Below, piece by piece: positions 1,164-22,680 of a stretch of 32,000 bases of DNA (positions are counted from its first letter, which is position 1; each line of letters begins with the position of its first letter). Made by a program: the position numbers and the translations under genes. Origin of the DNA: Vibrio vulnificus CMCP6 (lineage in GTDB: Bacteria; Pseudomonadota; Gammaproteobacteria; Enterobacterales; Vibrionaceae). The stretch is from positions 3,249,867-3,281,866 of the forward strand of contig NC_004459.3 of NCBI RefSeq assembly GCF_000039765.1, read 5' to 3'. Under the pieces are notes generated by a model. That model saw only the letters and a program-made list of their open reading frames with translations, had not been told where the DNA came from and ran no database searches.

Positions 1164-1481
1164 ATAATACCTCTCGGTATCTATAGAGTTTTAAAAAAAA
1201 GCAGAATCTGTAATCACGCATAACTTCATCACACATGCGTTATCAATATGAGTAACGTATGTAAAATGTGTTTTAACTCAAACTTTTACATAAAATCAAC
1301 ACATCAAAATTTACATACAACGCCAAGTTTGGTAACGTAAAATTGTAAAGGTTATCGTCACCTAGCCCGACTCAAGGCAAAGACGATAGTTTTGAATAGA
1401 CAAAGTAATCACTTTTCAGTGGCATTTTGCATGAGAGTCGCATAGCAAACTTCAATGCTGCACTACGACCAAGGTGAAACT

Positions 1482-2066
1482 ATGTCTAAAAACCATTCAT
1501 TACCTCAAATTTCTCCATCCGACATCTTTAAGTTAAAAGCAAAACAATTTTCATTGTTAATAACCAAAATATCAGGTTTTAGTAATATACCGTCAAAAAA
1601 AAGGTATGATTGGTTAGCTCATGCTCTAGGTTATAAAGACCACAATGATTTATTACACTCTAATTATCTTAGAAGAATTACTGATAACCGTAATATCCTA
1701 AATATTTTTAGTAATAAAAAACAACGAGAAGACATAATTAATATTTTCTGCTCTAACCTTCCTGACGTATCAAAGAAACATATAAGTGATGCTACTATTT
1801 TAATGGCTATTATAGAAAAGCCAGAATATAAAAAGTTACTATTTTCACTAATACATAGTGGAATTAGATACCCCTCAATTTCTGGGTTAATTACACCTAA
1901 AAATAATAAAATAATCACATATAAATTAAACATCCCAAGAATAAAATCAGCACACCAAAGCCTACCAAATAACACCATCAACAAAAACCATATATTTTCG
2001 TTTTCAAAATTTCGTGAAGATTATGTTAAAAACACATTATCAGAAAACTTAACGACAAATAAATGA
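1482..2066 (+). CDS. Hypothetical protein, first gene of the recombinase operon; paralog of 8334-8789
   Basis: ATG at 1482 is preceded by AGGTGA. Its stop overlaps the next start (ATGA at 2063-2066). It shares the blocks KxRYxxLAxxLGYKDHxxL and FCSNLPxVSxKHI with the 151-aa ORF at 8334. Confidence 0.6.
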   Translation: MSKNHSLPQISPSDIFKLKAKQFSLLITKISGFSNIPSKKRYDWLAHALGYKDHNDLLHSNYLRRITDNRNILNIFSNKKQREDIINIFCSNLPDVSKKHISDATILMAIIEKPEYKKLLFSLIHSGIRYPSISGLITPKNNKIITYKLNIPRIKSAHQSLPNNTINKNHIFSFSKFREDYVKNTLSENLTTNK

Positions 2067-3940
2067 AATATAGATTTGGTGAAATGGGAAATAAAAAAGT
2101 ATCTATCGGAAACTTATCCGCAAAAATAATAAGTGGGAAAAACATAAGTATCGGTGATAAAAGTGCACTTGGTGAATTAATTAAATATTTAAAAAAAGAG
2201 AATAAAAGTAAATTAATAACAACCAACTTTGATGATGTTGAATTTCTTAAATTTCTGAAATATTTATCTACGATTAAAACGACAAAACGCCGATATCAAA
2301 TTTCTGTTGCAGTAAGACGCCTTATTGCTGAAGAATTTCACAACGGAGTTGTTTTCACTATATCACCCGACGAATGGCCTGTTCCGGAAAAACCGAGACC
2401 AACGCATTTTCAACCACTAAGCTCAGAACAAATAGTCAAATTGGAAGAATTTCTAAGAGAAGAAATTGACGTTGCTTATAAGAAAGATGAAATTTTTCAG
2501 AGTGCCCGAAAATCAGGAGTGGTTAGCAACAAAATCGGCATCGACTTTTGGCACCGAGCTAACCCAGATCCAGCGTTACCTAGATTTACTGACTGGCATG
2601 AAAGCCTAAAAAATGCCATTGCTACAATATATTCTATTCATCCAAATTTTCCTAATAATGCATCAAATGAAGATTTGGCAGAAAATGGAAAATTTTATAT
2701 TCCCAAAGACCTTACATATACAAATCTTACAACAACATTTAAAACCCTCGCAAAGAGAATGGTCATGCAAAACATTCCTGGGTACACTTCATTTGTATTA
2801 GAAGCCCCAGAACTAACATATACAAAATTAATATCATATATCTACCCGGATTTACGTGAACTGATCGCTATTAAAATAGCGATTTGCTTCGAAACTGGTT
2901 GGTCACCCGATATCACCGAACGAATAGATCCAGATGATTATATTTATGACCCAATTCCTATGGAAAATGACTGGGTATTTATTAAATCAACAAAAGCAAA
3001 GGGAGCTTCTGTAAATAAGAAAACAAGACTTCGCGAACAGAGATTGATGATTCATCCTAGTTCAAAAACTGATAAATACAGTGCGTATAATTTAATAAAA
3101 TTACTAGTAAAAAGAACTTCAACATTACGAAAAGGACATTTATACGAGAAAGCAACTACAGATCTTGACGTTCACCCTGCATTCATAAGTTTAGTAGTAA
3201 ATGCTGGTCTAAAATTTGTAGCGCATTACCCATGCCGTAAAGGTGTTAATAGAAGTTCAAGTAGCAAGTTCATTGAAAAAAGTATTGGGTATAAGTTGGA
3301 TCTAAGACGACTCAGGCCAACTCGATTGTATCTAAATGAAAAAGAAAAAAAGCTGCCGCTATTGCTTCAAGTCGCGCTATTTGGGCACTCAACATCTGCA
3401 ATTACTGACGAGGTTTATAAAGACAACTCCCACTTCCAACAGCTAAGAAATGACAAACTAGCAATGGAATTAGATAGTATATTCGACAGTATTCGTGATG
3501 GTTCTTTCAAAGGAAAACTAGTTCCATTAAAACAAAGAACATGTATCAAAAAAAAGATAATAAATATCTATACAAACCACAATGGCGAGTCACCATTAGC
3601 AATCTGTAATAACCCATACTACCCCACCTGGCACTTGTCTGATGGTGGACAAATTCCCAGATCAAATAAACCATGCAAACAATTTAACAAATGTCTTACG
3701 TGTCAACAATCATCCGTTACCAGTGACAACATTCCATTTGTAGTAGATAGATTCCTCTATTTAGATCAGAAACGACGCTCAATGCGAAGTGACCAGTTTG
3801 ATTGCATGTATAGGGAAGAATATGAAGCAGCAAAAGAAGTCATCGAATCATGGCCTTATCAAGAAGATATTCAAGAAGCTGAGTTGAGAAACGCTGTTGA
3901 TGGATACCTACTTCCACCTATTATTTCAGAGAGTAACTAA
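2063..3940 (+). CDS. Large (625 aa) tyrosine-recombinase-fold protein with non-canonical box I and a C-terminal Cys cluster
   Basis: Box II-like LRRLRPTRL (codons 414-422) and LFGHSTSAITDEVY (putative Tyr452) are present. The box I position reads ETGWSPDI instead of TGxRxxE. The Cys cluster is C515, C538, C544-x2-C547. The gene is translationally coupled on both sides. Confidence 0.7.
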   Translation: MKYRFGEMGNKKVSIGNLSAKIISGKNISIGDKSALGELIKYLKKENKSKLITTNFDDVEFLKFLKYLSTIKTTKRRYQISVAVRRLIAEEFHNGVVFTISPDEWPVPEKPRPTHFQPLSSEQIVKLEEFLREEIDVAYKKDEIFQSARKSGVVSNKIGIDFWHRANPDPALPRFTDWHESLKNAIATIYSIHPNFPNNASNEDLAENGKFYIPKDLTYTNLTTTFKTLAKRMVMQNIPGYTSFVLEAPELTYTKLISYIYPDLRELIAIKIAICFETGWSPDITERIDPDDYIYDPIPMENDWVFIKSTKAKGASVNKKTRLREQRLMIHPSSKTDKYSAYNLIKLLVKRTSTLRKGHLYEKATTDLDVHPAFISLVVNAGLKFVAHYPCRKGVNRSSSSKFIEKSIGYKLDLRRLRPTRLYLNEKEKKLPLLLQVALFGHSTSAITDEVYKDNSHFQQLRNDKLAMELDSIFDSIRDGSFKGKLVPLKQRTCIKKKIINIYTNHNGESPLAICNNPYYPTWHLSDGGQIPRSNKPCKQFNKCLTCQQSSVTSDNIPFVVDRFLYLDQKRRSMRSDQFDCMYREEYEAAKEVIESWPYQEDIQEAELRNAVDGYLLPPIISESN

Positions 3941-5883
3941 TGAAACTAATAAACTTTGGCGAGATCAACATTGATAAAGACATTCAAATATCAGAAGAAA
4001 TAAATTTCAAATATAATGTTTGGAGAATTCAATATTCACAATCAGAACATATATCACTAAACTTTGAAAATTTTAGTGAAAATAATAATGTATCTAACTA
4101 TAACGATTTGGTAATTTTAATAAAAATACTAACTTATTATGAATTCCCTAAATTATTCAATTTAAACATAACCAGTTGGTTGACAACAAATCATCGCCAT
4201 TCATATTTTATTAATGTCGCTAAAAATTTTCTCCTTGATTCTGGATTTACATCTAGAAAAATGCTTTCTAATATTACTTTAAGTCAATGTAAAGGATATA
4301 TTGAAGATTGCATTTCACTATTTAAAAAAAGAATACCAGGTTCAATAACAAAACTGGATAGTGCAATATATTTTTTTGACAGATGGAGTGAATTATCTCA
4401 CAAAAAAAGGTTACCAAAAGAATTCAGATTTGAATACGATAAGTATGATATTTTAGATAAAGAAAAACGTGCTGAACTAAGAACTCTCAAAGATGAACAA
4501 TGCGATCCATGGCAACCATTGGATTCAGAAATTGTAAAATCCGTTTTCGATGAATCATTAAAATATATACAAACTTTATCTCCAACAATTATTAAATGCT
4601 CCAATTTAGTAAAAGAAAAAGGACGACGAGACGATGGTTCTTCTTGGGGAACCATAAGAAAAGATGGTCGTACAAAACATATTTTTAAAGTACTCGAGAA
4701 CATGGAAATTCCAGACATATATGATGGAGTTAAACTTTTCAATTTTAAGCCTGTAACCAAAGAGGTTACTTCTTTAGGTTACGCCAGTGGGAAGCAAGAT
4801 AGAACAACAATACCAACCAATGAAATACGGCCAGCAGTTATAAAACTAAAACGAAGTTGTATATTTATTATAGGGTTATTTACTGGTTTAAGGCGTCGTG
4901 AGATTGCATCACTAAAGGCTAAGCCAGCATATAAAAAAAATGATTGTTTATACTTAGATATTATACGTTTTAAGCAAGCCGCCGATTCAGAACAAGAAGG
5001 TGAAGAAGATAGTATCCCTATACCAAAAATTGTTGGTGATGCTATTGATATATTAATTGAATTATTTGCTATCAGCCGAAAGACATTAAATAGCCAATAT
5101 CTTTTGGTAACAGATATGCCTTCTAAAAAGAATTTCGAAAAAATAAAAATTGATACAATTACAAAAGACATTAGAAAAATAGTCGCTGATATGACAGATG
5201 TAACAGATGCTCACCCACACCAGCTGCGAAAAACTATCGCATGGTTACTGATTTCTAGAAGTGAAAAAAACATTGATCTTATTCGTCAGCTCTTTGGTCA
5301 TAAAAGTTATGGTATGACACTTCGATATATAATGCGCAACGAATTAATGGTAGAGAGTGTAATAGAGTTGTTAGAACACAACTACACAGAAGATCTACAA
5401 GAAATATTCGAGGCTATCAATAATAATAATACAGCGGGAGATCTATCAGATAAAATCAAAAAACGTATGGAAGAGCAAATTTATCCAGGTAGCATATTGG
5501 TAACCGATATTGAATCCTATGTGCGTGAATCACTAAAAGCTGGTATACCTTTGTTCGTATCGAGAGTCCCCATTGGTGGTTTCTGCATAAACGCGGGTAA
5601 TGAAGATTCTATCCCACCATGTATGATGAAAACCAATTCAAAAAGACCATGCGTTGATTTCTGTAACTACAAAGTGTGTGATTACCTAATTTTTAATGAT
5701 GAATCAATTTCTAATATTCACTCTCAAATTAACTACTACAAACAAAAGTTAAGCTATCTAGATGAATCAAGCAATGAAAAAGTTGTGACTTATTATCAAA
5801 AAGAAATTCTTGAACACAGAGAGCTTCTTGAGAGATTAGAAAATAAGAAAAATAACCAGAATTTTAAAAAGGCTCAATTATGA
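3940..5883 (+). CDS. Large (647 aa) tyrosine recombinase (phage-integrase family) with a C-terminal Cys cluster
   Basis: Canonical motifs are present: FTGLRRREIASL (Arg I), HPHQLRKTIAWLL (HxxR) and LFGHKSYGMTLRYI (His/Tyr). The Cys cluster GGFCINAG...PPCMM...RPCVDFCNYKVC spans 5584-5679. Start and stop overlap the neighbouring genes. Confidence 0.8.
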   Translation: MKLINFGEINIDKDIQISEEINFKYNVWRIQYSQSEHISLNFENFSENNNVSNYNDLVILIKILTYYEFPKLFNLNITSWLTTNHRHSYFINVAKNFLLDSGFTSRKMLSNITLSQCKGYIEDCISLFKKRIPGSITKLDSAIYFFDRWSELSHKKRLPKEFRFEYDKYDILDKEKRAELRTLKDEQCDPWQPLDSEIVKSVFDESLKYIQTLSPTIIKCSNLVKEKGRRDDGSSWGTIRKDGRTKHIFKVLENMEIPDIYDGVKLFNFKPVTKEVTSLGYASGKQDRTTIPTNEIRPAVIKLKRSCIFIIGLFTGLRRREIASLKAKPAYKKNDCLYLDIIRFKQAADSEQEGEEDSIPIPKIVGDAIDILIELFAISRKTLNSQYLLVTDMPSKKNFEKIKIDTITKDIRKIVADMTDVTDAHPHQLRKTIAWLLISRSEKNIDLIRQLFGHKSYGMTLRYIMRNELMVESVIELLEHNYTEDLQEIFEAINNNNTAGDLSDKIKKRMEEQIYPGSILVTDIESYVRESLKAGIPLFVSRVPIGGFCINAGNEDSIPPCMMKTNSKRPCVDFCNYKVCDYLIFNDESISNIHSQINYYKQKLSYLDESSNEKVVTYYQKEILEHRELLERLENKKNNQNFKKAQL

Positions 5884-6980
5884 CTTTAAAGGAAAAGGAT
5901 GTAGAAAATGTAATTGATATCCTTATCTCATCAGATTCTTTTAATGTAAAAAAACTAGCTGAGTATCTTAAGGTTTCTCGGTCCTATTTATATAAAGAAT
6001 TCCGACATCTACTACCTAAACCAGCAAGTATCACCCAAAAAAGAATAGAAAATGCTATTTTACGAATTAGACAACGGACAGGTCGCTCTCTCTTAACTAT
6101 TTCGGAAGTAGCAATAGAATCAGGAGTAAGCAGGCAAAGTATTTCTAGAGATTACAGTCATCTTTTATCTATGATAAAAGGTAAAAAATCTGTTGATATA
6201 ATTCCTAATTCAACAACAGAATCAGAAGAAAAAATTAAATTCCTAGAAGATCAAATTTCTTCTCTTAGCATGAAAAATGAAGAATATGAAGAGAATATTA
6301 AGTTAAAGGTTTACTCCGATATGATGAAGCAAGATCTTGCTTCATTTACAGCCCAAAAGGACAAAGCAAATGCTATCAAGCTACAAAATCAAAATGATGA
6401 AATAATAGCTATTAATAAACAACAAATATCAGAACTAGCGGATCTACGATCGCAATTATCAGAATTAAAAAGAAAGTCTAAAACAATCATTCCCGGGTGT
6501 AATATTATTGCTCATATCAAACCAGATTATAGTAGTATTTCATCAAAAATGGATTTAAAAACTTCAATGGAGATTTTCTTCGAAATAGAAGAAAAAAACA
6601 TAAACGATGCCATTGATATCTGCTTCACTTCACAACCTAATTCAGTAATATTTTTTCAACCTTTTCTTAGTTGCAACTTTGAAAGTCTTGGTATTACTTT
6701 ATCAAAAGGTGATGTTATTCTTATTGAAAGTAATTTTCCTCTTGCCAAGCAATTCAAAAAACTTTTACTAAATATAAGCGAAATTCCTGTCCATTCAATA
6801 TCATGTAAAGGTCACGAATTACAATTGGCAAATTTCTATTGTCGAAAGAATCACACCAATAAATTTAGCGAAGAGTTTATAGATAAGTTATATAAACTAA
6901 TATCTTATCCAGATCAGAATGATGGTTTTAAATCTGTAACGCTCGTAAAGCCTAGCCCTTCTATTTCGGCGGTAAAATAG
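5880..6980 (+). CDS. Accessory protein with two N-terminal HTH-like segments, a central coiled coil and an unknown C-terminal domain
   Basis: The HTH-like segments are VKKLAEYLKVSRSYLYKEF and ISEVAIESGVSRQSISRDY. A heptad-rich region spans about aa 115-200. The gene is embedded between recombinase genes, with an ATGA overlap upstream and a 1-nt gap downstream. Confidence 0.55.
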   Translation: MTLKEKDVENVIDILISSDSFNVKKLAEYLKVSRSYLYKEFRHLLPKPASITQKRIENAILRIRQRTGRSLLTISEVAIESGVSRQSISRDYSHLLSMIKGKKSVDIIPNSTTESEEKIKFLEDQISSLSMKNEEYEENIKLKVYSDMMKQDLASFTAQKDKANAIKLQNQNDEIIAINKQQISELADLRSQLSELKRKSKTIIPGCNIIAHIKPDYSSISSKMDLKTSMEIFFEIEEKNINDAIDICFTSQPNSVIFFQPFLSCNFESLGITLSKGDVILIESNFPLAKQFKKLLLNISEIPVHSISCKGHELQLANFYCRKNHTNKFSEEFIDKLYKLISYPDQNDGFKSVTLVKPSPSISAVK

Positions 6981-6981
6981 T

Positions 6982-8268
6982 ATGCTTATTGAACGGAAAT
7001 TAATTACATATCCATATGAAAGAACCGATTACTCTCATTACATCCTAGTTTTAAAAATAAATGATAAGATAATATTGATGAGTGCTGTAAATCTATTTTT
7101 AAAAGAAAGGACATACAGAAGTTTTAAAACCAGCGAACGGTATTCCAATATTTTAAAACGTTTCTTTCATTTTATAATAAAAAATAATGCCAACATAAGC
7201 CAAAATTTCTGGCGAGAAGTTACGGATAGCGATATTCGTGAATGGCAAGGATATATAATAAAAAAGAGAGATAATGAACACAAGAAAAGGCCAAAGGATG
7301 ATACTATATATTTAGATGCTTGTATCGTTTTCGACTTCTATTCTTGGGCAGAAAGGAACCATTTTCCGGTTTTAATAAATTCAACAAGTGTTGACTGGAA
7401 ATTTAATTTTCGAGATGAAAGCAAAATTTTATCAAGTAAAGGCATCCTATCAGGAAGTGTTCCAGATTATGCAAACATTGATATTCGTAACACACGAAGA
7501 AAGCAATTTAGAAGCTTTAATAATAAATCTGATACTATAATGGAGTTTGAAAATATCATAGCTTTAGTAACATCATATAGTGATCTAGTTTATCCAGTAA
7601 TGTTTCTTTTAGCACTAGCTACTGGTATGCGTGAACAGGGAGTATGCTCTTTCCCTTATATTGGAATCGGTGAAAATGATCATATTAGAACATATCCTGA
7701 AATAAAAAATTTGGTTCCCAAAGACCCCAAAGGAAAAACTCCCAAAACATTTCCTTTCACTACTATAGAAAAAGGGAATAAAAAAAGAACTTTAAAGGTC
7801 AACATGTCTGCCTGGAAAATAATATGCAAAACATACTTACCACTTTATTACCAAAGAAAAAAATTATTTAGACAGAAATTTCCTCATAAAAACGATAATG
7901 CTGTATTCTTCTTGAATAAGGTCGGTAAACCCGTAACACCCAAAATGGTGTCAGATGCGACGAACCGAGCAAAAAAGAAACTTAATGACCAGCACTTTCA
8001 TTGGTCATTTCACAGTACAAGGGACTGGTATGCCACAATGTTTATTATCAAACACTTAACTCGAGAACAGATCAATGTAGCACATTATGACGCAGCTATT
8101 GAAGATGCTTTACGCAAACAACTAGGACACAGTGATATCAGAACAACATACATGCATTACATCCGTGTAGCTTCTCTTCTGTTGGCAACACGTAATGGTG
8201 AATTAGATTTTTCGTTGGGGAATTCTGATGATTTTTGGAATAATATTGCTAAAACAATAACTACCTAG
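6982..8268 (+). CDS. Tyrosine recombinase/integrase (428 aa)
   Basis: Motifs ALATGMREQG (Arg I), FHSTRDWYATMF (HxxR) and QLGHSDIRTTYMHYI (His/Tyr) are present. There is an N-terminal SAM-like region with a conserved W. Confidence 0.8.
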   Translation: MLIERKLITYPYERTDYSHYILVLKINDKIILMSAVNLFLKERTYRSFKTSERYSNILKRFFHFIIKNNANISQNFWREVTDSDIREWQGYIIKKRDNEHKKRPKDDTIYLDACIVFDFYSWAERNHFPVLINSTSVDWKFNFRDESKILSSKGILSGSVPDYANIDIRNTRRKQFRSFNNKSDTIMEFENIIALVTSYSDLVYPVMFLLALATGMREQGVCSFPYIGIGENDHIRTYPEIKNLVPKDPKGKTPKTFPFTTIEKGNKKRTLKVNMSAWKIICKTYLPLYYQRKKLFRQKFPHKNDNAVFFLNKVGKPVTPKMVSDATNRAKKKLNDQHFHWSFHSTRDWYATMFIIKHLTREQINVAHYDAAIEDALRKQLGHSDIRTTYMHYIRVASLLLATRNGELDFSLGNSDDFWNNIAKTITT

Positions 8269-8333
8269 TGCCTCCTCGCCATTCAGCCTAATCCATAGCG
8301 AAGCTACACACTACGCATAATAGGGATAAATCT

Positions 8334-8789
8334 ATGCATAAGGAAACCTTTAAAGTTGCTCCTTTTAATCTTGATAATTTTAAATCGAAAGCAGTACGAT
8401 TTACGTCACTGATAGCAGAAAAGTCAGGACATGATAAATTTAAATCAAAAGAACGTTATAATTTGCTTGCTCAATCATTGGGTTATAAAGACCATGGAGC
8501 TCTCGTGAAGTTATCGCGTTCCTGGAAAATCAGTAACAATAATGCCGTTTTTAGCATTTTTGTTTATGAGAAACACAGAAAAAAAATCATTCATACTTTT
8601 TGCTCAAACCTTCCATCGGTCTCCAACAAACATATCGAAGCGGCTGTAAAGGAAATGATTGTGGACGAAAGACTAGAAATCTCTAATTTTTTACGCTGTA
8701 CTCCCATGAGCCGAGAATCGTTTGTTCAATATCATAACCGAAACTATTTCGAAGAAGTGACTTGGAGTAACTTTGATTCCCATAACTGA
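8334..8789 (+). CDS. Hypothetical protein, paralog of 1482-2066
   Basis: It shares ERYNLLAQSLGYKDHGALV and TFCSNLPSVSNKHIE with the 203-aa ORF. The upstream DNA also shares CACTACG...CTATG. It looks somewhat less AT-rich than its paralog. Confidence 0.6.
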   Translation: MHKETFKVAPFNLDNFKSKAVRFTSLIAEKSGHDKFKSKERYNLLAQSLGYKDHGALVKLSRSWKISNNNAVFSIFVYEKHRKKIIHTFCSNLPSVSNKHIEAAVKEMIVDERLEISNFLRCTPMSRESFVQYHNRNYFEEVTWSNFDSHN

Positions 8790-9983: not shown

Positions 9984-10796
9984 TCGATGGCTTGGAAAGC
10001 TCAACTCGAGGTAAACGCTGTATTGACTGCTTTACTCGCACTGAATCCTCAAAGTCTTGGATATCAACGTTCACGTTGGAGAACTGAGCCGATGGCGATT
10101 GAGGTGAATCGGATATTTGGGTTTAACGCGCACTCATCGACCATTCGTCGATGGGTGCCTAAACTTGGGATCGTCTGGCGAAGAGCCTGCATATCAAAGA
10201 TCCAGATAAAGAAGCCAAACTCACCAGAATCAAAGAGGCATTAGCGCGTTGCGACGCTGACAATCCGGTGTTTTATGAAGACGAAGTCGACATTCACTTA
10301 AACCGCAAAATTGGGTCAGATTGGATGCCCAAAGGTCAACAAAAGAAAGTAGCGACACCGGGACAAAATGCCAAATACTATCTCGCAGGAACTCTGCATG
10401 CCAACACTGGTAAAGTCTCGTATGTCGGAAGTAGCAGTAAAAACTCAGAACTGTTTATTGCGATGCTAGAGTAGTTGAAACGCCAGTACCGCCGAGCAAA
10501 AACCATTACTCTTATCATAGATAATTACATCATTCACAAGAGCAGAAAAACACAGGGTTGGTTAAAGCAAAATCCGAAGTTTGTTTTGCTTTTTCAGCCA
10601 GTGTACTCGCCTTGGGTAAACAAAATAGAGAAGCTTTGGCATACGTTGCATGAAACGGTGACACGGAATCATCAATGCAAAGTAATGTGGCAACTTTTAA
10701 AGCGGGTTCGATACTTTATGGATAACGTTTCACCATTTCCCGGCGGCGGTCATGGGCGACAAAAAAGTGGAGCATAATTAGGAACAGTTATTTAGG
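9984..10796 (+). mobile_element. IS630-family element, copy A: 5'-truncated by the IS903-like element, with a frameshift and an in-frame TAG
   Basis: IS630-type transposase blocks are present (GYQRSRW, PVFYEDEVDIHLN, LAGTLH, IIDNYIIHKS, YSPWVNKIEKLW). The right inverted repeat TAGGAACAGTTATTTAGG lies at 10779-10796. There is an in-frame TAG at 10472-10474 and a frameshift near 10190-10270. The left end is missing. Confidence 0.8.
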
Positions 10797-10996: not shown

Positions 10997-11887
10997 TTAT
11001 GCCTTTGGGGCAATATCGAGCTCTGCAATATCTTTTAACTGGCTGGCATTACGCAGCCACAATAAATGTTCTCGCCCTGTCAGGCTGTGATCTTCCGTAC
11101 AATCAACATTCCAGTAACGTAGATAGTATCCGGCAAGGGGAAGTCTTAACTTGATGCTACGATGCCAATCCGGTGAGGATTCCATAGAGAAATCCAGGGC
11201 AATAGCCTGATGAAATGATTGTGAGGGATGGGGGACTAACTCAAGTTCAACCGACTGATTCCAACTATCATCACTTTCTCTCTGTTCACTTTCCAGAACT
11301 TGTTCTTCTAGATTTTCAACCTGAGTAAACCGAGTGCAAACAAAGTCACGAAACTGATTATGTTTGCGGTCAAACGCTCTGACATGCCAACGTTGCCCAT
11401 TATTAACCAGTGTATGGGGTACGAGAATGCGTTGTGTCTCGCCTGAACTCAAAGACCAATAAGTCACTTGAATTGGTTGCTGATGGACAATACCGCGCAT
11501 TAGTCCCGCGACAATGTCGCTACTCGGGTTAAGTTGGCTAAAAGACTGAATGCATATTTCAGAAGGCTTAACAGGCATAGAGATACAGTCACCAAAGCCT
11601 TCCACTAAGCGTTGTAGTATGGCACTGCTATTATGCTCAAAAAGTGGCTGAAATTGTTCTGTGCGGTAGTAACGTTTATCTTCATGCTTGAGGACCAAAT
11701 TATCCGGCATTAACTCACGATAGAGAGTAAAGTCACGCGAACAAGACGCCAGTCCTGTTTTAAAATGCTGTATAAGGTCTGTTCTTGCAACATCACCAAA
11801 GTACTGCAAGCAAAAGTCTATAAAAGCCAATCGCTCTTTATGCGCGTAGCTTAAATCCTCTAAAGCTTTATTTCTCTGAGCTCCCAT
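10997..11887 (-). CDS. Putative WYL-domain transcriptional regulator (N-terminal HTH, central WYL-like domain)
   Basis: The N-terminus reads KERLAFIDFCLQYFGDVARTDLIQHF...SRDFTLYRE (HTH-like). The WYL-like core is GQRWHVRAFDRKHNQFRDFVCTRF. I prefer the start at the MGAQRN Met (11887) over the ORF-track start at 11947. Confidence 0.5.
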   Translation of the reverse strand: MGAQRNKALEDLSYAHKERLAFIDFCLQYFGDVARTDLIQHFKTGLASCSRDFTLYRELMPDNLVLKHEDKRYYRTEQFQPLFEHNSSAILQRLVEGFGDCISMPVKPSEICIQSFSQLNPSSDIVAGLMRGIVHQQPIQVTYWSLSSGETQRILVPHTLVNNGQRWHVRAFDRKHNQFRDFVCTRFTQVENLEEQVLESEQRESDDSWNQSVELELVPHPSQSFHQAIALDFSMESSPDWHRSIKLRLPLAGYYLRYWNVDCTEDHSLTGREHLLWLRNASQLKDIAELDIAPKA

Positions 11888-12034
11888 TCCATACCTTGAT
11901 ACTTGCAACTTGGTGGATATATTAAGGAATGCAACCGATAGGTACAATCATTTTGATAGGATGATTTTGATGTTACCTGTATCAGTTCAAAAACAGGCTG
12001 TACTGCTGTTTTCACAATACATAACAGGGAAGTT

Positions 12035-12331
12035 ATGAAAGTTTACCTAGATGACGCACGACCTACTCCAGATGGGTGGCACCGAGTCTACAGGCCTGAA
12101 GAAGCCATTGTATTACTCAAGCAAGGGACAGTATCTGAAATCAGCCTTGATCAAGATCTTGGTGATCATGAACACGGCACTGGCTATGATGTGCTTTTAT
12201 GGATTGAAGAGGCAGCTGTAACGTAAAGTTTTCAACCACCTATAATACGGGTTCACAGCGCTAACTCGTCTGCGAGAAAGAAAGTGGAGTTCGGTATCGT
12301 GAATATCAAACGTGTAAGTATGTTAGCTTGA
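12035..12331 (+). pseudogene. Small receiver-like (cyclic-phosphate-processing-receiver type) protein interrupted by an in-frame TAA
   Basis: MKVYLDDARPTPDGW...ISLDQDLGDHEHGTGYDVLLWIEEAAVT is followed by TAA at 12224-12226. The same frame continues SFQPPIIRVHSANSSARKKVEFGIVNIKR... to TGA at 12329-12331. That gives the full expected domain of about 98 aa. Confidence 0.5.
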
Positions 12332-12365: not shown

Positions 12366-12671
12366 TCACACAAGTTGAATTACATATACAGCAGTGGTTG
12401 CAGCGAAAATAGCTGCTACCTTTAGCGAAAATAATATCAATTGCCTCTTGTATCCATAAGAAATCGCTTGCTCAAGTTCGTATAGTTCAATCTTTGTTCG
12501 CTTGTCTTGATACAAAAATATGCCATCAAGTATTCTTGAGGTCATTCCTAACTTCCACTGTTCATAAAGTTTCAGTCTTTCAGCAGAAGGGAAATCATCA
12601 ATGTGGTTTCTGCTTCTGATTGCAGCCGCTATCTGGTCTACAGTTCGTCTCTTTTTCAAAAGCACCGGCAT
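12366..12671 (-). CDS. Hypothetical tail-anchored membrane protein (101 aa), last gene of the helicase operon
   Basis: A single hydrophobic segment, LILFSLKVAAIFAATTAVYVIQLV, sits at the extreme C-terminus, and the N-terminus is charged. A 16-nt gap separates it from the upstream gene. Confidence 0.5.
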   Translation of the reverse strand: MPVLLKKRRTVDQIAAAIRSRNHIDDFPSAERLKLYEQWKLGMTSRILDGIFLYQDKRTKIELYELEQAISYGYKRQLILFSLKVAAIFAATTAVYVIQLV

Positions 12672-12687
12672 TGCCCCAGTAAGTTAA

Positions 12688-13209
12688 TTAATAATCCGCT
12701 GATTTTAAGGCGCGTATTTTAGAAATCAGTTCACTAGTAACGCCCTTTCCAGACTCTGAACGTAAGTAACGATCCGGATAATGTTGCAATAGCTCTTCAG
12801 AGCCGACATCGCCACAGACGTACCATTGGGCGTTCAGACTGTGAGCATGGACTAACATCTGACGGACTGAATTATTGTCGTCCATATGCGTTCTGAAGGG
12901 TAATTCTGTCTCAGGGGCTAATTCGTCGCCAGTAAACACACCATGTTCAATAAGGTATGAACGATTGTAAAAAGCCCCCAACGGGTAAAGTAGTAGTAGC
13001 CCCGCTTCTGACGTTGCACTTCTTAACTTGTCGATAGCTTGAAAATCCGGTTCCACCATTTCTAAAAGTGTCGTTGTTCGAGCATTGAACCAATCTTTAT
13101 ACTTGGCATGTACACTTGCATTATGGTCAAAATATTCATTCGAATAGAACAAACTAAGCATGTCGAAATATAAAATCTTCACTGAAATTCCCTGCTTTAC
13201 ATTAGGCAT
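12688..13209 (-). CDS. Hypothetical protein (173 aa), no family recognised
   Basis: The ORF overlaps the upstream gene by 8 nt, which suggests translational coupling. I could recognise no motif. Confidence 0.5.
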   Translation of the reverse strand: MPNVKQGISVKILYFDMLSLFYSNEYFDHNASVHAKYKDWFNARTTTLLEMVEPDFQAIDKLRSATSEAGLLLLYPLGAFYNRSYLIEHGVFTGDELAPETELPFRTHMDDNNSVRQMLVHAHSLNAQWYVCGDVGSEELLQHYPDRYLRSESGKGVTSELISKIRALKSADY

Positions 13210-13507
13210 AGTTAAAATGGTGCTTCATGAAAAAGTCCAGATGACATCCTCTTTCTAATGCTCTTTGCTCAATTTGCTTCCATAATACCGGTAAATAGGT
13301 TTTAAGATCTTCCGCATCCGATTGGTGATATTCATCCTCACAATCTCCAGCAGCAGCTTTTAGCCACCCTGAAGGGGTCAAAATAGTGAGCCCCCGATGA
13401 AAATACTCAGGAATCGACTCCCGAATGAATTCTTCGCTACCGCTAGCAACATAAATTGTGACACCTTCACCCGTCGCGTAATAATAACTAACACCGATAT
13501 AGAACAT
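13202..13507 (-). CDS. Hypothetical protein (101 aa), no family recognised
   Basis: The ORF starts 45 nt downstream of the helicase gene on the same strand and overlaps the next gene. Confidence 0.45.
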   Translation of the reverse strand: MFYIGVSYYYATGEGVTIYVASGSEEFIRESIPEYFHRGLTILTPSGWLKAAAGDCEDEYHQSDAEDLKTYLPVLWKQIEQRALERGCHLDFFMKHHFNYA

Positions 13508-13552
13508 ATAAACTCCTTAAAAATCTCTTGCTTGATGAAACATCTTCTCTGA

Positions 13553-14944
13553 TTATAAAAATGCTGAGACTACACGCTCACGAAATTGTCCTAACCAGAT
13601 TTCATCATAAATGTCATCAGAGCCCCGGCCTGAATTGGACTGTGTAGAATAAGTTCCCCATTCTAACTGGCTGTAAATATTGATAGTTTTTATTGGTTCA
13701 GATTCAACTTCACCGCTTTGATTTGTTGCTTTTAGCTGTGTGACATACTCATCTTTAACGATTTTGGCAAAGAGACATGTTTCAGGAATGTCATGCTCTA
13801 TACGTTCCGCGTATTCAATTAAATTCTGCTCGGCAAACGTATAAAGCCAGGCTTGTTGATTTGGACTTTCGTTGACTCGTAATATCCGACCAAGTACTTG
13901 TCTAAAGTAAAGTTCTGTTTTTACAGAGCTGATATGACAACACACTTGTAATCGGGGAATATCGGTACCTTCGCTTATCATACCGACACTCACAATCCAT
14001 TGGGTCGTTCCTGTTTGATAGGCCTTAATTTCAGATTGTGGATCATCATGATGGTAGGTTACTAATGTTGCTGACTGGCCAAATTTTTCGGTCAATATTT
14101 TTTGTACTTGTTTTGCATGCTTCACCGATGACGAAACAACGAGACCACCGGCATTAAAAGACTCTTTCCGGATTTCACTAAGTTTCTGACATCCCAAGCC
14201 GAGGATATACTCCATTGCTTGAGTATTATGAATCACATCCTGATAAGACGTCTTTGATTGCTTAAGGAGTTCAAGAATAGAAGCAAATGACTTTTTCTCC
14301 GAACCTTCTGAAATCGTTAAATGTTCATTATCAACCAAAACTAATTTCGGCTTACGGCAAACTTTGTCAGCTATAGCTTCAGCTAACCCATACTGGTAAT
14401 CACAAAAAAGCTTGCCTTCCGGATCACTATATTCAGCTAAAACAATCGGAAATTTATCTGAGCGCCAAGGAGTTCCTGAAAGAGCCAAAGTATAGGTGGC
14501 AACACCTTGTATACGCGCTAATATCTGTTGTCCCCAAATGTTGGCTCTGTCTGGCCCATCGCCAGAACAGTGATGTATTTCATCAAATACGACAAGCAGC
14601 CGATATTTTTCAATGGTCCGCCAAAAGTCGTCGCCTAAATACTGAATTGACTGATAAGTAAGCGACTGACCAATTGAGCCTAGACTTCCGTTAAATGGAC
14701 AATTTATGGTTATCGAGAACGTAGCCCTCATGCCATCAGCTACAGCGACTGAAGGTGAAAAGCAAAGAATAAGATCGATCATGCCTTTATCGAGTAGTGT
14801 CTTAGCCAGTGTAGCTGACATGATGCTTTTACCGGCTCCAGGTGTTGCCTGACAGAAGAAATGGTTAGAACCGGATTCGTACTTTTCCAACGCCTGAGCA
14901 ACACATTCTGCTTGCCATTTTCTTAACATACTATGTTCTCTCAT
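13553..14944 (-). CDS. Superfamily 2 DEAH-type helicase (ResIII-like N-lobe plus helicase C-lobe), 463 aa
   Basis: Motifs present are LRKWQ (Q-like), ATPGAGKS (Walker A), VVFDEIHH (motif II), LSGTPWR (motif III), SEGTDIPRL (motif V) and FRQVLGRILR (motif VI). Confidence 0.8.
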   Translation of the reverse strand: MREHSMLRKWQAECVAQALEKYESGSNHFFCQATPGAGKSIMSATLAKTLLDKGMIDLILCFSPSVAVADGMRATFSITINCPFNGSLGSIGQSLTYQSIQYLGDDFWRTIEKYRLLVVFDEIHHCSGDGPDRANIWGQQILARIQGVATYTLALSGTPWRSDKFPIVLAEYSDPEGKLFCDYQYGLAEAIADKVCRKPKLVLVDNEHLTISEGSEKKSFASILELLKQSKTSYQDVIHNTQAMEYILGLGCQKLSEIRKESFNAGGLVVSSSVKHAKQVQKILTEKFGQSATLVTYHHDDPQSEIKAYQTGTTQWIVSVGMISEGTDIPRLQVCCHISSVKTELYFRQVLGRILRVNESPNQQAWLYTFAEQNLIEYAERIEHDIPETCLFAKIVKDEYVTQLKATNQSGEVESEPIKTINIYSQLEWGTYSTQSNSGRGSDDIYDEIWLGQFRERVVSAFL

Positions 14945-15488
14945 GTGACAATGAATTCAACATATTCGTAATTGCATTAATGTTACCCATAAACAAAGCT
15001 GCCTTTTCGTTAGCGGCAACGTGCAGACGGTCAAGAAGCTGAAATTGATCGGGATATTGTTCTTTTAACGTTTTGTACTGCTCTATCTCACCCAAAGTGA
15101 CTTCCAACTCTCCCTTTAATCTGTTGCGCTCAACCGTTAATTCTGAGTAATCGTTACTATCACTGTTTATAACTGAAACTTTTGGGAGACACTTTTTTAC
15201 ACGTGATTTAGGTTTACGAGGCTCAAAAGAGAGCGAATAAAACTCGTCAGTTTTGAAGTAACGCTTTTCCCTACCAGAACCTTCACAGCGCAACCATCCG
15301 CTTTCAATACACTTTAATAACTGTCGATAAACAATCTTTCGAAGCTCATTGATATCTTTAGGACTTTCGGAGAACAAGCGAGCGGCATCTCGAGCCTCGA
15401 CAACGGAAAATCCATCCATCTCTTTTTCTATCAATAACTTATAAATATACACGTTTATCTTTTGAGAACGTTTCACATACAACTCCAA
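14931..15488 (-). CDS. Hypothetical winged-helix-like / coiled-coil protein (185 aa), first gene of the helicase operon
   Basis: The N-terminal approx. 90 aa resemble a wHTH (IVYRQLLKCIESGWLRCEGSGREKRYFK). The C-terminus is heptad-rich (RNRLKGELEVTLGEIEQYKTLKEQ). The gene overlaps or abuts the helicase start. Confidence 0.5.
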   Translation of the reverse strand: MELYVKRSQKINVYIYKLLIEKEMDGFSVVEARDAARLFSESPKDINELRKIVYRQLLKCIESGWLRCEGSGREKRYFKTDEFYSLSFEPRKPKSRVKKCLPKVSVINSDSNDYSELTVERNRLKGELEVTLGEIEQYKTLKEQYPDQFQLLDRLHVAANEKAALFMGNINAITNMLNSLSHERT

Positions 15489-15498
15489 AACACCAAAA

Positions 15499-15549
15499 AC
15501 TTAGGATTGCTAAGTATACAAAAATAAGTAAAACTTAGACAATCTAAGT
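15499..15549. promoter_or_regulatory. Two related 17-bp palindromic operators in the divergent XRE/helicase-operon promoter region
   Basis: ACTTAGgattgCTAAGT lies at 15499-15515 and ACTTAGacaatCTAAGT at 15533-15549. Their centres are 34 bp apart, within the 92-bp intergenic region. Confidence 0.55.
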
Positions 15550-15580
15550 TATCGAAGGATTTAAGAGAAATGAATCGTCT

Positions 15581-15898
15581 GTGGAAGACAACCCGATACC
15601 TATGCGGCTTAAAAAAGCTCGCAAACATGCCAAAATTACCCAGAAAAACTTGGGGATAATGATCGGTATGGATGAAAGCTCTGCAAGTGGCCGAATGAAC
15701 CATTACGAAAAAGGGCGACATACGCCGGATATCAGCACATTAAGAAAAATGGCTGATGCTCTTGGCGTGCCGTTAAATTACTTTTTTTGTGAGGATGAGG
15801 CGTCTGCTGAGTTAGCGACGGCAATCTCGAGATTATCTGAAGCTAAAAGAAATCAAGTGCTTAAATTTGTAAAATCACTAGAAGAAAGTGACGAGTAA
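15581..15898 (+). CDS. XRE/Cro-C1-family HTH transcriptional regulator
   Basis: MRLKKARKHAKITQKNLGIMIGMDESSASGRMNHYEKGRHTPDISTLRKMADALGVPLNYFF is a typical HTH_XRE domain. The start is GTG at 15581 or ATG at 15602. The gene is divergent from the helicase operon. Confidence 0.8.
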   Translation: MEDNPIPMRLKKARKHAKITQKNLGIMIGMDESSASGRMNHYEKGRHTPDISTLRKMADALGVPLNYFFCEDEASAELATAISRLSEAKRNQVLKFVKSLEESDE

Positions 15899-16133: not shown

Positions 16134-17182
16134 CCTAAATAACTGTTCCTAATTATGCTCCACTTTTTTGTCGCCCATGACCGCCGCCGGGAAATGGTGA
16201 AACGTTATCCATAAAGTATCGAACCCGCTTTAAAAGTTGCCACATTACTTTGCATTGATGATTCCGTGTCACCGTTTCATGCAACGTATGCCAAAGCTTC
16301 TCTATTTTGTTTACCCAAGGCGAGTACACTGGCTGAAAAAGCAAAACAAACTTCGGATTTTGCTTTAACCAACCCTGTGTTTTTCTGCTCTTGTGAATGA
16401 TGTAATTATCTATGATAAGAGTAATGGTTTTTGCTCGGCGGTACTGGCGTTTCAACTACTCTAGCATCGCAATAAACAGTTCTGAGTTTTTACTGCTACT
16501 TCCGACATACGAGACTTTACCAGTGTTGGCATGCAGAGTTCCTGCGAGATAGTATTTGGCATTTTGTCCCGGTGTCGCTACTTTCTTTTGTTGACCTTTG
16601 GGCATCCAATCTGACCCAATTTTGCGGTTTAAGTGAATGTCGACTTCGTCTTCATAAAACACCGGATTGTCAGCGTCGCAACGCGCTAATGCCTCTTTGA
16701 TTCTGGTGAGTTTGGCTTCTTTATCTGGATCTTTGATATGCAGGCTCTTCGCCAGACAATCCCAAGTTTAGGCCCCCATCGACGAATGGTCGATGAGTGC
16801 GCGTTAAACCCAAATATCCGATTCACCTCAATCGCCATCGACTCAGTTCTCCAACGTGAACGTTGATATCCAAGACTTTGAGGATTCAGTGCGAGTAAAG
16901 CAGTCAATACAGCGGCAATTTGAAGAAATGGGAGCGTCGCGGCTCTACCTTGAGAAAGAAGCAATATGGCATTCAAGTGTCGGTAATGGTCTTTATCCTT
17001 AGTCTTATGCATCTTTTTAGTGATACGACGTCGCTCAGCGCGGTCAGGTAACCTTAGAATCATGGAAACTCGGTAACGGTTGCGGGTTTGTATGTTTGGT
17101 GACTGATCAGATCGCTCAAACGGTACCGAGTTCCCTTCTTTTTTACATACCAGTGATCTACATTTAGGAACAGCTATTTAGG
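16134..17182 (-). mobile_element. IS630-family element, copy B: both inverted repeats present, with an internal N-terminal deletion and the same frameshift and in-frame TAG as copy A
   Basis: The inverted repeats are CCTAAATAACTGTTCCTA (16134-16151) and TAGGAACAGCTATTTAGG (17165-17182). ORFs 16153-16455 and 16456-16662 are identical in protein to those of copy A. The complement of TAG lies at 16456-16458. Confidence 0.85.
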
Positions 17183-17439: not shown

Positions 17440-17845
17440 TTAGTAGCCGAAAGAAATGGTTCTTGCATCGTTTGCGTCGTTCTTTTGTCTACCGACGAAC
17501 GACTTAACATGTTGTGCTGGTATGCGTGATACCTTAAAACTAAGCCCTAAAAAGACTCGCCCCCAATATTGTGATGAAGCATATGACTCCCTAGCCAGTG
17601 GAGTATTATCTGGAAGTTGACGGATTGTATGGAGCAGTTTGTTTCGAAGGACCTTAAGATTTAACGAGATGGTACCGTCAATATTCAATAAGCATACTTG
17701 AAAGAAGTTCTTAGCTAAATCGATCCCAATAACTTTAATCGACATGGCTGTTACTTCTGCTTTTAATGGCTGTACCTATCGTGTTGTACAACAATGCAAG
17801 AAGGGAGGTGTATCCATCACATCAAAGCCGCTTGCTTGGCATGTA
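17440..17845 (-). mobile_element. IS110-family element, 5' fragment only (N-terminal approx. 100 codons plus upstream end)
   Basis: MSIKVIGIDLAKNFFQVC...QKNDANDA is an IS110-type DEDD N-terminus. The DNA upstream (17746-17845) is homologous to that upstream of the second IS110 copy (GTACAAC..AGAAGG.AGGTG...CATCACATCA.AGCC). The outer boundary is approximate. Confidence 0.65.
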
Positions 17846-17908
17846 TTAAATGTTCAATTAAATGGTATACTTTCGCAAATTAGCTTAACGCAAAATAGAG
17901 AATTACTG

Positions 17909-18973
17909 ATGTCTGACACGCAATCATCATCGAGAAAACTAAGTATCTACATTATTACCACGATTTTAGTAATTTGGCTTTATAGTCTTTGGGCCGACAG
18001 GGTTACACCAATCACCAGCAGTGCCCGGATCCATTCTTATCTTGTACAGATCGCACCTGAGGTAACAGGCAATATCATTGACGTTTCAGTCAGTGACAAT
18101 CAGATCGTGAATGCCGGCGACCTTTTGTTCCGAATCGATCCAAGAAACTACGACATTGCTCTTAGAGCGGCTCAAGCAGAGTTGGAGTTAGTCGGTCAAA
18201 GTATTGGTGCAAATACTGCGGCCGTAGAGGTTGCACAGGCTAGAGTTGTAGAAGCTCTGGCTGCGAGAAATAATGCTCGTGAGCAAGCAGCCAGAACGGA
18301 AACACTGGCTAAGCGGGGGGTCTTAAGTAAGGCAGATCTGGACAATGCACTAGAATCAAAAACTCGTGCGCAAGCTGGGCTGGAGGCCGCGGAAGCAGCA
18401 TTAGTGCAAGCAAAACAAAACTTGGGGCCTGCTGGTAATAACAACCCGCAAATTCTCGCGGCGATGGCCAAACTTGAAAAAGCTCAGCTTGACCTTCAAA
18501 AAACCAATGTTACTGCGCCTTCAAAGGGAGTTTTGACTAATGTCCAACTCACGAACGGACAACGTGCTAATGCTGGCACGCCATTATTAACATTCATTGA
18601 CCCTCGTGGCGTATGGATCTCGGCCCAGCTACGAGAAAACTCTCTTGAACATATTCGAGAAGGGCAACGTGTCGATATTGTATTGGATGCGCTGCCAGGT
18701 CGTGTTCTCTCCGGAAAAATTGACAGCATTGGCTGGGGGACAGGAGGCAGTAATAATGTAGATGCCACTACAGGTTTTTTAGTCGCAGATAACAAGGCAA
18801 TCAGTGCCCAGCGTTACCCTGTTAATATTGTCTTTGATGACGTAGAGAGACTTTCAAACGTCCGATTTGGTTCTCAAGCTACCGTTGCAGTCTATACTGA
18901 GAAAAGCAAATTTGGTGAGTGGCTAGCAAGCATTTGGATGCATGTACTGAGTGTTTGGACTTATGTTTCGTAG
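17909..18973 (+). CDS. HlyD/EmrA/AaeA-type membrane fusion protein (MFP)
   Basis: There is an N-terminal TM segment (LSIYIITTILVIWLY), a lipoyl/hairpin region (VQIAPEVTGNIIDVSVSDNQIVNAGDLLFRIDPRNY) and an Ala/Gln-rich coiled coil. I prefer the start at MSDTQ (17909), because 17744-17908 is IS110 end sequence. Confidence 0.8.
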   Translation: MSDTQSSSRKLSIYIITTILVIWLYSLWADRVTPITSSARIHSYLVQIAPEVTGNIIDVSVSDNQIVNAGDLLFRIDPRNYDIALRAAQAELELVGQSIGANTAAVEVAQARVVEALAARNNAREQAARTETLAKRGVLSKADLDNALESKTRAQAGLEAAEAALVQAKQNLGPAGNNNPQILAAMAKLEKAQLDLQKTNVTAPSKGVLTNVQLTNGQRANAGTPLLTFIDPRGVWISAQLRENSLEHIREGQRVDIVLDALPGRVLSGKIDSIGWGTGGSNNVDATTGFLVADNKAISAQRYPVNIVFDDVERLSNVRFGSQATVAVYTEKSKFGEWLASIWMHVLSVWTYVS

Positions 18974-19970: not shown

Positions 19971-20021
19971 TCGTCATTACTTGGGTTCAACTTTGACTAA
20001 CTCGTTCTTAAGGAGGTTTTT

Positions 20022-21639: not shown

Positions 21640-22680
21640 AGTTGATTTAGTTACATCAAATTACGCAACATATATCGACACACCTCAGTATGCAATGAGT
21701 CTTCCATAGCATCCGCTTTGTTAGTTCCGCAACGAACCACTGTGTGAGCACCGTGAATAAGTCATGTTCTTAATTCACGATTGCCATTTTTCGATAGAGA
21801 GCTAAGACAACTTTTTCCGCCTGTACTATTTTGTTTAAGAATCAGACTACACCATGCAGAGAACTGGCGATCATTTTGGAGTTGGTTTCCAGCTCCTACC
21901 TCACTAATCAGTGCCGCTGTCAAAATCGGCCCAAAATCAGAAATATTCCGAATGACCTCATATCTTTGGTTTTGCTGACTCAATATGGTGACACTTTGAG
22001 TCATTGCATCTATCTCTTCGCTAAGGCTGACAAAGTAATAGTATAAAGTTTGCAGTAAGTTCCTCATTACTGGAGAAAGCTTATTCTCTGCATCTTCAAG
22101 AGCTCTCGGTAAATGACACCGCAAAGCTATAATGGAAATAGGAAATACAACACCGTACTCAGCAGTCAATCCCTTGATCTGGTTCGCTAAGGCAGTTCTG
22201 TTCTCCACCAAACGTTTAAGGACACTGCGTATCGCTTTGAGGTCTTGTTAATCAATAGATTTAACAGGGTCAGGCATAGAAAAGGCATCGAAAATAGCTC
22301 TTGCATCATTGGCGTCGTTCTTTTACCGATCAACAAATGGTTTTACATGCTGAGATGGAATAAGCGCTACTGTATATCCCAGCTCTTGAAATATTCTGCC
22401 CCAATGATGAGAAGTTGCACATGAGTCATTGCAAGAGCAGTTTGCTCTGGTAGTTGACGGATAGTATCAAGAAGCTTATCTCGCTTTACCTTTATGTTTG
22501 ACAATATTTGTCCATCAGTACTCAACACACATACTTGGAAGAGATTTTTTGCTGTATCGATACCGGCAACTTTAATAGACAGACGTGTTACTTCTTTTCT
22601 CACTGGTTGTACTATTAGTTTGGTACAACGACGCTAGAAGGTAGGTGCGTGCATCACATCACAGCCTTATCCATAGATAA
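21640..22680 (-). mobile_element. IS110-family element, degenerate (transposase broken by stops and frameshifts); boundaries approximate
   Basis: ORF 22367-22603 is the N-terminal part (SIKVAGIDTAKNLFQVC). ORF 21762-22211 is the C-terminal part (NRTALANQIKGL...ISEVGAGNQ...KNGNRELR). The sequence between them is in other frames. Confidence 0.7.

Follow-up and report, generated by a model that had tools for sequence, protein, structure and literature searches.

A 32,000-nucleotide (nt) stretch of the Vibrio vulnificus CMCP6 genome (positions 3,249,867 to 3,281,866 of contig NC_004459.3; hereafter the window, whose first nucleotide is position 1) contains five tightly packed genes on the minus strand between 15488 and 12366, where adjacent genes either overlap (by 14 and 8 nt) or are separated by short gaps (45 and 16 nt); they are faced by a divergent gene for an Xre-family protein. 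In order of transcription the five genes encode a VspR-family regulator, a superfamily 2 (SF2) helicase, and three small proteins of 101, 173, and 101 residues, termed here s101a, s173, and s101b. The original prediction for this locus described it accurately: the gene packing, the intact helicase motifs, the divergent Xre gene with paired palindromic operators, the winged-helix and coiled-coil character of the first product, the hydrophobic tail of the last, and the setting in an integrative, defense-rich island were all borne out. It went on to propose that the five genes form one conserved cassette, and here the comparison with related loci disagrees. Only the genes for Xre, VspR, and the helicase stay together across more than 80 loci; by this distribution, the five genes, although real, do not make up a single evolutionary unit and appear instead to be a conserved trio (its third member being the divergent Xre gene) followed by exchangeable cargo.

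The comparison used tblastn with the window proteins and all-against-all clustering of open reading frames in 88 loci (individual loci carry L numbers). Eighty loci were taken from species-representative genomes, some with two or three copies of the trio, in the genera Vibrio, Photobacterium, Aliivibrio, Shewanella, Psychromonas, Pseudoalteromonas, Moritella, Neiella, Motiliproteus, Ferrimonas, and Pseudomonas. Window proteins were scanned against Pfam, PADLOC 2.0, PHROGs, and NCBIfam.

The Xre–VspR–helicase trio

The divergent gene (15581..15898, plus strand) encodes a 105-residue protein that matches HTH_3 (4.7e-10) and the PADLOC Control_protein model (1e-27) and resembles, over essentially its full length, the restriction–modification (R–M) controller C.Csp231I (PDB 3lfp, E = 7e-19 across residues 8–98). 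We assign it, on similarity, to the C.Csp231I type of controller proteins. The 92-bp region between the Xre and VspR genes contains two perfect ACTTAG-N5-CTAAGT palindromes, found by motif search at 15499..15515 (box 1) and 15533..15549 (box 2), 34 bp apart. They are the only perfect copies in the window, and a search across the window for further copies, which could mark other regulated promoters, gave none better than two mismatches, the level expected by chance. The pair itself is far beyond chance because it recurs at the same offsets in ~60 related loci. A promoter-like site for the VspR–helicase operon (15513..15542, minus strand; TTGTCT-18-TATACT, recognized only as a match to the consensus, at 9 of 12 positions) overlaps both boxes. 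Among related loci the operators occur as ACTAAG-N5-CTTAGT or ACTTAG-N5-CTAAGT; most relatives have the first, canonical order and the window has the second. In the Xre–VspR regions of L002–L088 the operators are always paired and 34 bp apart, whichever variant is present. The two variants may allow orthogonal regulation where several trio elements share one cell; Psychromonas sp. GE-S-Ul-11, for instance, carries three.

C.Csp231I recognizes CTAAG-N5-CTTAG at two sites 18 bp apart (PMC4321490), and the window region shares with it the CTAAG/CTTAG half-sites with N5, the placement of the paired inverted repeats upstream of the controller’s own gene, and a similar spacing, with 19 bp between the 15-bp operator cores. 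In contrast to C.Csp231I, the window Xre controls no restriction or methylase genes, is divergent from rather than co-oriented with the operon that it would regulate, and has boxes in which the half-site order is swapped (CTTAG-N5-CTAAG). A second parallel is found in the CRISPR-associated transposons (CASTs) of type I-F3, nearly all of which have a conserved xre gene between tnsABC and tniQ-cas; these Xre proteins fall into 68-residue, C.AhdI-like and ~100-residue, C.Csp231I-like classes, their binding, autoregulation, and repression have been shown, and zygotic induction has been proposed (Petassi et al. 2020). They were later named RtaC and RtbC, the latter being the regulator of I-F3b elements. 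In Vibrio parahaemolyticus, the related VpxR (VPA1391, on VPaI-7) represses the divergent “hypothetical” gene VPA1392, which is also silenced by H-NS, ToxR, and LeuO, and the link of VPA1392 to the CAST was stated as unknown. Judged from the loci compared here, VPA1392 is very probably a VspR homolog.

A divergent Xre is present in ~60 of the 80 related loci, and the published class split is reproduced among them, with proteins of either ~100–105 or 68 residues. Like RtbC and VpxR, the window protein is a ~100-residue, C.Csp231I-like Xre with two palindromic boxes upstream and a divergent operon as its presumed target, and close relatives of the window trio lie directly after tnsABC in CASTs (L038, L051, L054, L066, and L094), where the tnsABC/tniQ-cas context typical of RtbC is present. 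The window differs in that Pfam scans found no R–M, tns, or cas genes in it; it also has no tniQ-cas genes or CRISPR array, and its trio resides in a tyrosine-recombinase island and is bracketed by IS630-family insertion sequences. The published work on RtbC also has a different subject, the control of guide RNA and tniQ-cas expression, and notes the VspR–helicase operon only as a “hypothetical protein.” By analogy with these homologs, the window Xre would be expected to repress both its own promoter and the divergent one. The divergent gene and its operators are real, but the protein belongs to a class already studied in I-F3 CASTs and is not a repressor special to this operon.

The first gene of the operon (14931..15488, minus strand) encodes 185 residues, or 181 if, as is probable from the alignment, translation starts at the GTG at 15476, and a gene of this family lies directly upstream of the helicase in ~76 of 80 loci. 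Pfam VspR_N (PF27213) and VspR_C (PF27192) were found in all 33 homologs examined, which are 89–38% identical to it; several of these are named VspR in UniRef, and genes adjoining helicase homologs also carry both domains. Judged through its homologs, the window protein is a diverged member of the VspR family. Its AlphaFold2 model (predicted local distance difference test score, pLDDT, 83) contains a winged helix–turn–helix (residues 8–91), a disordered linker, and a helical hairpin (residues 112–184), consistent with the winged helix and helical dimerization domain of that family, and the best folds in the PDB are the PadR-family proteins AphA, VanR, and PadR, all weak matches (E only 3e-3). 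In Vibrio cholerae, VspR of the VSP-1 island is a negative regulator of the adjacent operon of an antiphage signaling system based on cyclic oligonucleotides (CBASS) and binds within it. There, too, a divergent Xre/VspR pair (VC0176 and VspR, VC0177) occupies a mobile island, with AvcD on one side and CBASS on the other; L007 has AvcD, Xre, and divergent VspR in the identical order, and VSP-1 VspR represses adjacent cargo. By published gene order, however, VSP-1 has capV directly after vspR and no helicase, and the window VspR is diverged and its cargo different. Xre and VspR together are thus a known type of regulatory pair, and the helicase partner is an unstudied addition.

The helicase gene (13553..14944, minus strand) overlaps the VspR gene by 14 nt and encodes a 463-residue SF2 helicase or translocase of the XPB/RadD-like kind, with matches to ResIII (3e-12) and Helicase_C (7e-6). 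Walker A, DExH, motif III, and motif VI are present (GAGKS, DEIH, SGTPWR, and QVLGRILR) within two RecA-like domains, and in an alignment of 13 homologs the catalytic residues are invariant. Profile matches to the XPBII, RadD, and Rad25 structures are weak, and the protein scores 53.6 against the NCBIfam RadD equivalog, for which the cutoff is 720; it is therefore not a RadD (YejH) ortholog. Unlike XPB, RadD, and the type III restriction “Res” enzymes, it has no nuclease, zinc finger, or Bax1-type partner, and its family has its own conserved C-terminal tail and an obligate VspR neighbor. The PADLOC scan matched no named system: the helicase gave a partial match to PbeA (1.9e-12), with no Pbe partner genes present, and VspR, s101a, s173, and s101b gave none. 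In PHROGs the helicase matches phrog_16 (4e-35), a phage replication-type family. The helicase family comprises more than 3,500 clusters at 90% identity, mostly from Vibrionaceae. Many of its database entries are named “diguanylate cyclase” or “GGDEF domain protein,” yet have no GGDEF domain; these names look like a propagated misannotation.

Two observations tie VspR and the helicase to one another. Their reading frames overlap by 1–22 nt in most loci, with gaps of 2–12 nt in the rest (one of 33), which suggests translational coupling, and their pairwise distances correlate at r = 0.91, compared with 0.66 for Xre and the helicase. VspR is the fastest-diverging protein of the trio (mean distance 0.61). 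The trio as a whole, comprising divergent Xre, VspR, and helicase, is nearly invariant across the more than 80 loci, which reach beyond Vibrio to Shewanella, Psychromonas, and Pseudomonas as well as to IncHI plasmids of enterobacteria, and on this evidence it constitutes a widespread, portable module of gammaproteobacterial mobile islands. In the literature on VspR with helicases, RtbC/RtaC, Tn7 cargo, and the islands described below, we found no description of the VspR–helicase pair or of the trio as a unit.

The small-gene cassette behind the helicase

Sequence similarity among the loci stops at the helicase stop codon, and everything outside the trio varies. The sequences simply diverge at that point; no conserved motif that might represent a recombination site or terminator was found after the helicase. 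In the window, the first gene beyond it encodes s101a (13202..13507, minus strand), an acidic protein without a family match, followed by s173 (12688..13209, minus strand) and s101b (12366..12671, minus strand); for all three, searches of Pfam, PADLOC, PHROGs, and NCBIfam returned only subthreshold noise. The s173 family is restricted to Vibrio (52 clusters). Its AlphaFold2 model (pLDDT 84; predicted template modeling score 0.82) shows a three-layer alpha/beta fold that is weakly HAD-like, and the fold matches unnamed phage proteins in BFVD at 1e-3. An identity as a HAD, flavodoxin, or nucleotidase protein was considered and set aside, as the fold matches in the PDB are weak (E = 0.04 or worse) and the DxD motif is absent. 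The last protein, s101b, is basic and ends in a C-terminal transmembrane anchor, and the hydrophobic character of this tail is kept in four homologs that are 52–74% identical. Also associated with these genes is a cREC_REC gene (12035..12226, plus strand; PF20274, 5e-18), which travels with the cassette in L010, L041, and L093. By alignment the window copy is truncated, encoding 63 residues where those three encode 97–98, and it is probably inactive.

The original prediction held that the helicase serves as sensor or motor, the 101- and 173-residue proteins as its partners, and the tail-anchored protein as a membrane effector, in one abortive-infection-type system under Xre control. Several features speak for such a system: the close packing of the genes in a shared orientation, the conserved transmembrane tail of s101b, the position of s101a directly behind a helicase of this family in 13 of 13 loci, and the co-occurrence of all five genes in L009, L010, and L041 and in a Vibrio natriegens locus (L093). 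The co-occurrence is confined, however, to these 3 of 80 genome loci plus the V. natriegens copy, which is truncated. In a few further loci s101a alone, or s101a with s173, follows the helicase, so that the small genes form nested subsets; s101b was found in only four or five loci, and no match to s101a was found in plasmids. Most trio loci have entirely different genes in that position. In L021, L025, L031, and L032, for example, a different and very basic protein of ~95–100 residues (cluster c46, isoelectric point ~10) takes the place of s101a.

The boundary of the cassette is also visible in the DNA. In L041–L043 the helicase is 58% identical to that of the window as protein and ~66% as DNA, and DNA identity rises sharply to 80–87% at window positions 13512–13518, within the 45-nt spacer and a few bases before the start codon of s101a; s101a is 88–91% identical even where the helicase is only 58% identical. 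How far the high identity extends varies: in different loci it stops behind s101a, behind s173, or within s101b. The small genes also exist without the trio. L093 retains them although its helicase has apparently been lost, and s173 occurs without Xre, VspR, or helicase in a V. parahaemolyticus island, between a recombinase module and an AAA_13 ATPase, and in another locus beside glmS. The former island, which adjoins rsmJ (L089–L091), is small and consists only of the recombinase module, the s173 homolog, and the 735-residue AAA_13 ATPase. This layout gives a hint of another partner for s173, with which it may cooperate or which it may counteract. Sequence comparison thus supports a view of s101a–s173–s101b, together with the truncated cREC gene, as an exchangeable Vibrio cargo cassette set down where conservation ends. 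The proposed roles of the small proteins as partners and effector are not supported by this distribution, and cloning the segment from 12.3 to 15.9 kb as “one system” would mix two unrelated modules.

Island setting of the trio

A mobility gene, either Tn7-like or of the tyrosine-recombinase type, was recognizable in the examined flank of 48 of 82 loci, and in 31 of these 48 it is separated from the trio by no more than one gene (examples are L094, L038, and the IncHI plasmids). Overall, a distance of 0–2 genes between trio and mobility module is usual. The mobility modules are varied: they include the Tn7-like TnsA–TnsB–TnsC of I-F3 CASTs, whose tniQ-cas genes lie beyond the cargo, no fewer than four kinds of multi-tyrosine-recombinase modules, and one of the Integrase_2 type. 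The cargo flanking the trio is mostly concerned with defense and includes type I R–M, AvcD, type VI secretion system (T6SS) modules, CBASS, HEC-06 and MADS components, and SspE. In 57 of 79 loci, the gene that immediately follows the helicase has the same orientation.

The IncHI plasmids, which are clinical resistance plasmids, have the same arrangement. In L095 (a Klebsiella oxytoca IncHI1B plasmid) and L098 (an Escherichia coli IncHI2A blaNDM-6 plasmid), a trio-type locus stands between a four-gene recombinase module and a DncV-type CBASS, a layout that mirrors VSP-1; it comprises a helix–turn–helix regulator, an upstream VspR-like gene of ~190–225 residues, and a helicase that is 50–55% identical. 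Other recombinase islands disrupt thyA (L042, L043, L069, and L080) or bcp (L031, L032, L027, L060, and L073). The bcp or thyA gene found between recombinases and trio was considered as the edge of the element and rejected, as the truncated copy lies outside and the intact copy inside, in opposite orientation in the case of thyA. This suggests that these islands insert into a housekeeping gene and carry a replacement copy.

The window itself contains, at 1455..8789 on the plus strand, a six-gene mobility module of ~30% G+C content, whose products are of 203, 625, 647, 366, 428, and 151 residues. The 647-residue (3940–5883) and 428-residue (6982–8268) proteins are tyrosine recombinases (Phage_integrase, 2e-10 and 1.4e-9), the 366-residue protein has a helix–turn–helix, and three of the six have no family. 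The 428- and 647-residue recombinases belong, as distant members, to the c7 and c9 families, which in other genomes and on IncHI plasmids lie beside the trio (hidden Markov model E values of 1.6e-19 and 1e-8), and the window is therefore one such island. In layout, this module and those adjoining the trio elsewhere resemble the Gamma-Mobile-Trio (GMT) islands, with their tandem recombinase genes and defense and T6SS cargo, and it is possibly GMT-like. In contrast, the paper on GMT islands makes no mention of Xre, VspR, or helicase, and the trio is found in Tn7-like elements as well and is not GMT-specific.

The trio probably lies at the far end of its island, in a layout disturbed by IS630, IS5-like, and IS110 insertions. 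Two IS630-family copies of 781 nt, at 10016..10796 (plus strand, with a DDE_3 match) and 16134..16914 (minus strand), are 100% complementary to each other and form a perfect inverted pair that brackets everything from a neighboring cargo gene for a WYL-domain regulator (10997..11947, minus strand; PF13280, 1.8e-13; PADLOC WYL, 4.6e-16) through Xre. Both copies have the same split reading frames, and the bracketed segment measures 5.3 kb; it could be mobile as a composite element, or the two copies could have recombined and so inverted it. Farther out, an N-terminal and a C-terminal fragment of IS110-family transposases lie at 17440–17745 and 21762–22211, in an order that a simple interruption would not produce, and enclose HlyD-like, DUF2955, and PLD-like genes (17744–21536). 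A drop in G+C content at ~22.3 kb may be the other boundary of the island. Scans of the window for tRNA genes and Rfam families found nothing.

Possible roles of the trio

In the most likely reading, to which we give about even credence, the trio is a controller-timed module serving regulation or establishment of the island. In such a model, Xre would bind the two boxes in the 92-bp divergent promoter region, limiting its own synthesis and repressing the facing promoter, which would drive a VspR winged-helix dimer and an SF2 DNA translocase from overlapping genes. Entry of the island into a cell that lacks the controller would release a burst of expression of the VspR–helicase operon (zygotic induction), co-oriented cargo directly behind the helicase would likely be expressed along with it, and the build-up of Xre would then shut the operon off. 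VspR could subsequently repress neighboring genes of the island, in the way that VspR of V. cholerae represses CBASS. The helicase, which co-evolves with VspR, might act on DNA together with it, either by remodeling or clearing nucleoprotein at (silenced) island promoters or by sensing foreign DNA. The sequence comparison itself establishes how the genes are conserved, the operators, the family assignments, and the border of the cassette. The literature on homologs provides the precedents for Xre binding and repression of a divergent gene and for VspR repression of CBASS; for the present locus, the timing of the burst and the targets of VspR are inferred, as is whatever role the helicase has.

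A number of observations weigh against this model. It is not obvious why a transcriptional switch should include a translocase, and a search with the VspR profile among 1.84 billion representatives, which might have revealed a VspR–helicase fusion, returned 462 clusters, of which the 150 listed are all 64–284 residues long, too short to include a helicase. The trio is dispensable, as the same c7–c15–c9 recombinase family occurs without it in L089, and VSP-1, by published gene order, keeps Xre and VspR without the helicase. Under the conditions tested, a CBASS-dependent phenotype of V. cholerae was the same with and without vspR, and in the native host baseline VpxR left its CRISPR target unrepressed. 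We found no experimental study of the helicase or of this VspR subfamily in the literature. Finally, the window trio is bracketed by IS630 copies, with nothing but IS debris next to Xre; anything that it formerly controlled there has been lost.

The main rival, which we judge unlikely, is that the VspR–helicase pair under controller timing is itself an uncharacterized antiphage or antiplasmid system. The winged-helix protein or the translocase would recognize invading DNA and block its replication or transcription, and the controller would delay or limit expression, as with restriction enzymes. The gating of toxic defense genes is classic for controller proteins, and the trio is always found among defense cargo. 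It also behaves as accessory defense genes do, being dispensable for the mobile element and sometimes pseudogenized (L047, L060, and L080), and a genome can accommodate two or three copies; the rapid divergence of VspR would fit an arms race, and the helicase weakly resembles PbeA. However, the pair has no nuclease or other effector domain and no PADLOC model, VspR is documented as a transcriptional repressor, and the stereotyped position beside mobility genes in unrelated types of element would be unusual for defense cargo, which is shuffled. The original prediction thus retains its defense island and the lack of a match to any named system, although the five-gene unity is lost and the first gene of the operon turns out to encode a VspR homolog.

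It is decidedly doubtful that the trio instead serves the excised element in replication, maintenance, or establishment, with the winged-helix protein binding an origin or centromere and the helicase unwinding, or that it is an early-expressed counterdefense that protects the incoming element. The phrog_16 match, the resemblance of the VspR model to the winged-helix centromere binders AspA and TubR, and the presence of the trio on large conjugative plasmids are all compatible with it, and a burst on entry would suit establishment functions. Nevertheless, origin, iterons, primase, and partition ATPase are all lacking, and the only conserved noncoding DNA is the operator region; Tn7-like elements, which move by cut-and-paste, do not require a replicon, and SF2 enzymes of the XPB/RadD-like kind are not known replicative helicases, the present one also scoring far below the RadD equivalog. 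A related alternative raised with the original prediction, a regulatory or replication module left by a phage satellite, fares no better. PHROGs and Pfam gave no primase or packaging matches, the PHROG matches being limited to generic helicase and regulator families, and the neighbors are transposases and recombinases rather than phage genes. A prophage module was likewise rejected, as the phage database gives only distant homologs of the helicase (≤32% identity). The single five-gene system is the least probable of the alternatives, highly improbable in our estimation and largely refuted already by the distribution of its genes.

A broader proposal can be made tentatively. The VspR–helicase pair, under the gate of a restriction-type controller, may represent an unrecognized system in thousands of islands, CASTs and IncHI resistance plasmids among them, acting either in nuclease-free defense or exclusion or as a translocase-assisted switch that times defense cargo or transposition, and, separately, s101a–s173–s101b, with or without cREC, may constitute a new conflict system of Vibrio, small in size and equipped with a membrane effector. 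Should the trio act as a unit, then a gene pair that lies next to the transposition genes of many I-F3 CASTs, whose regulation is being studied, and next to VSP-1-like islands has been overlooked. The trio would then connect three fields so far kept apart, namely C-protein switches in R–M systems, the way in which VspR controls CBASS in pandemic V. cholerae, and the regulation of CASTs by Xre, with a DNA translocase as a further component of the circuit. The trio could, moreover, mark the border between mobility genes and defense cargo, and would in that case help in mining islands for new systems.

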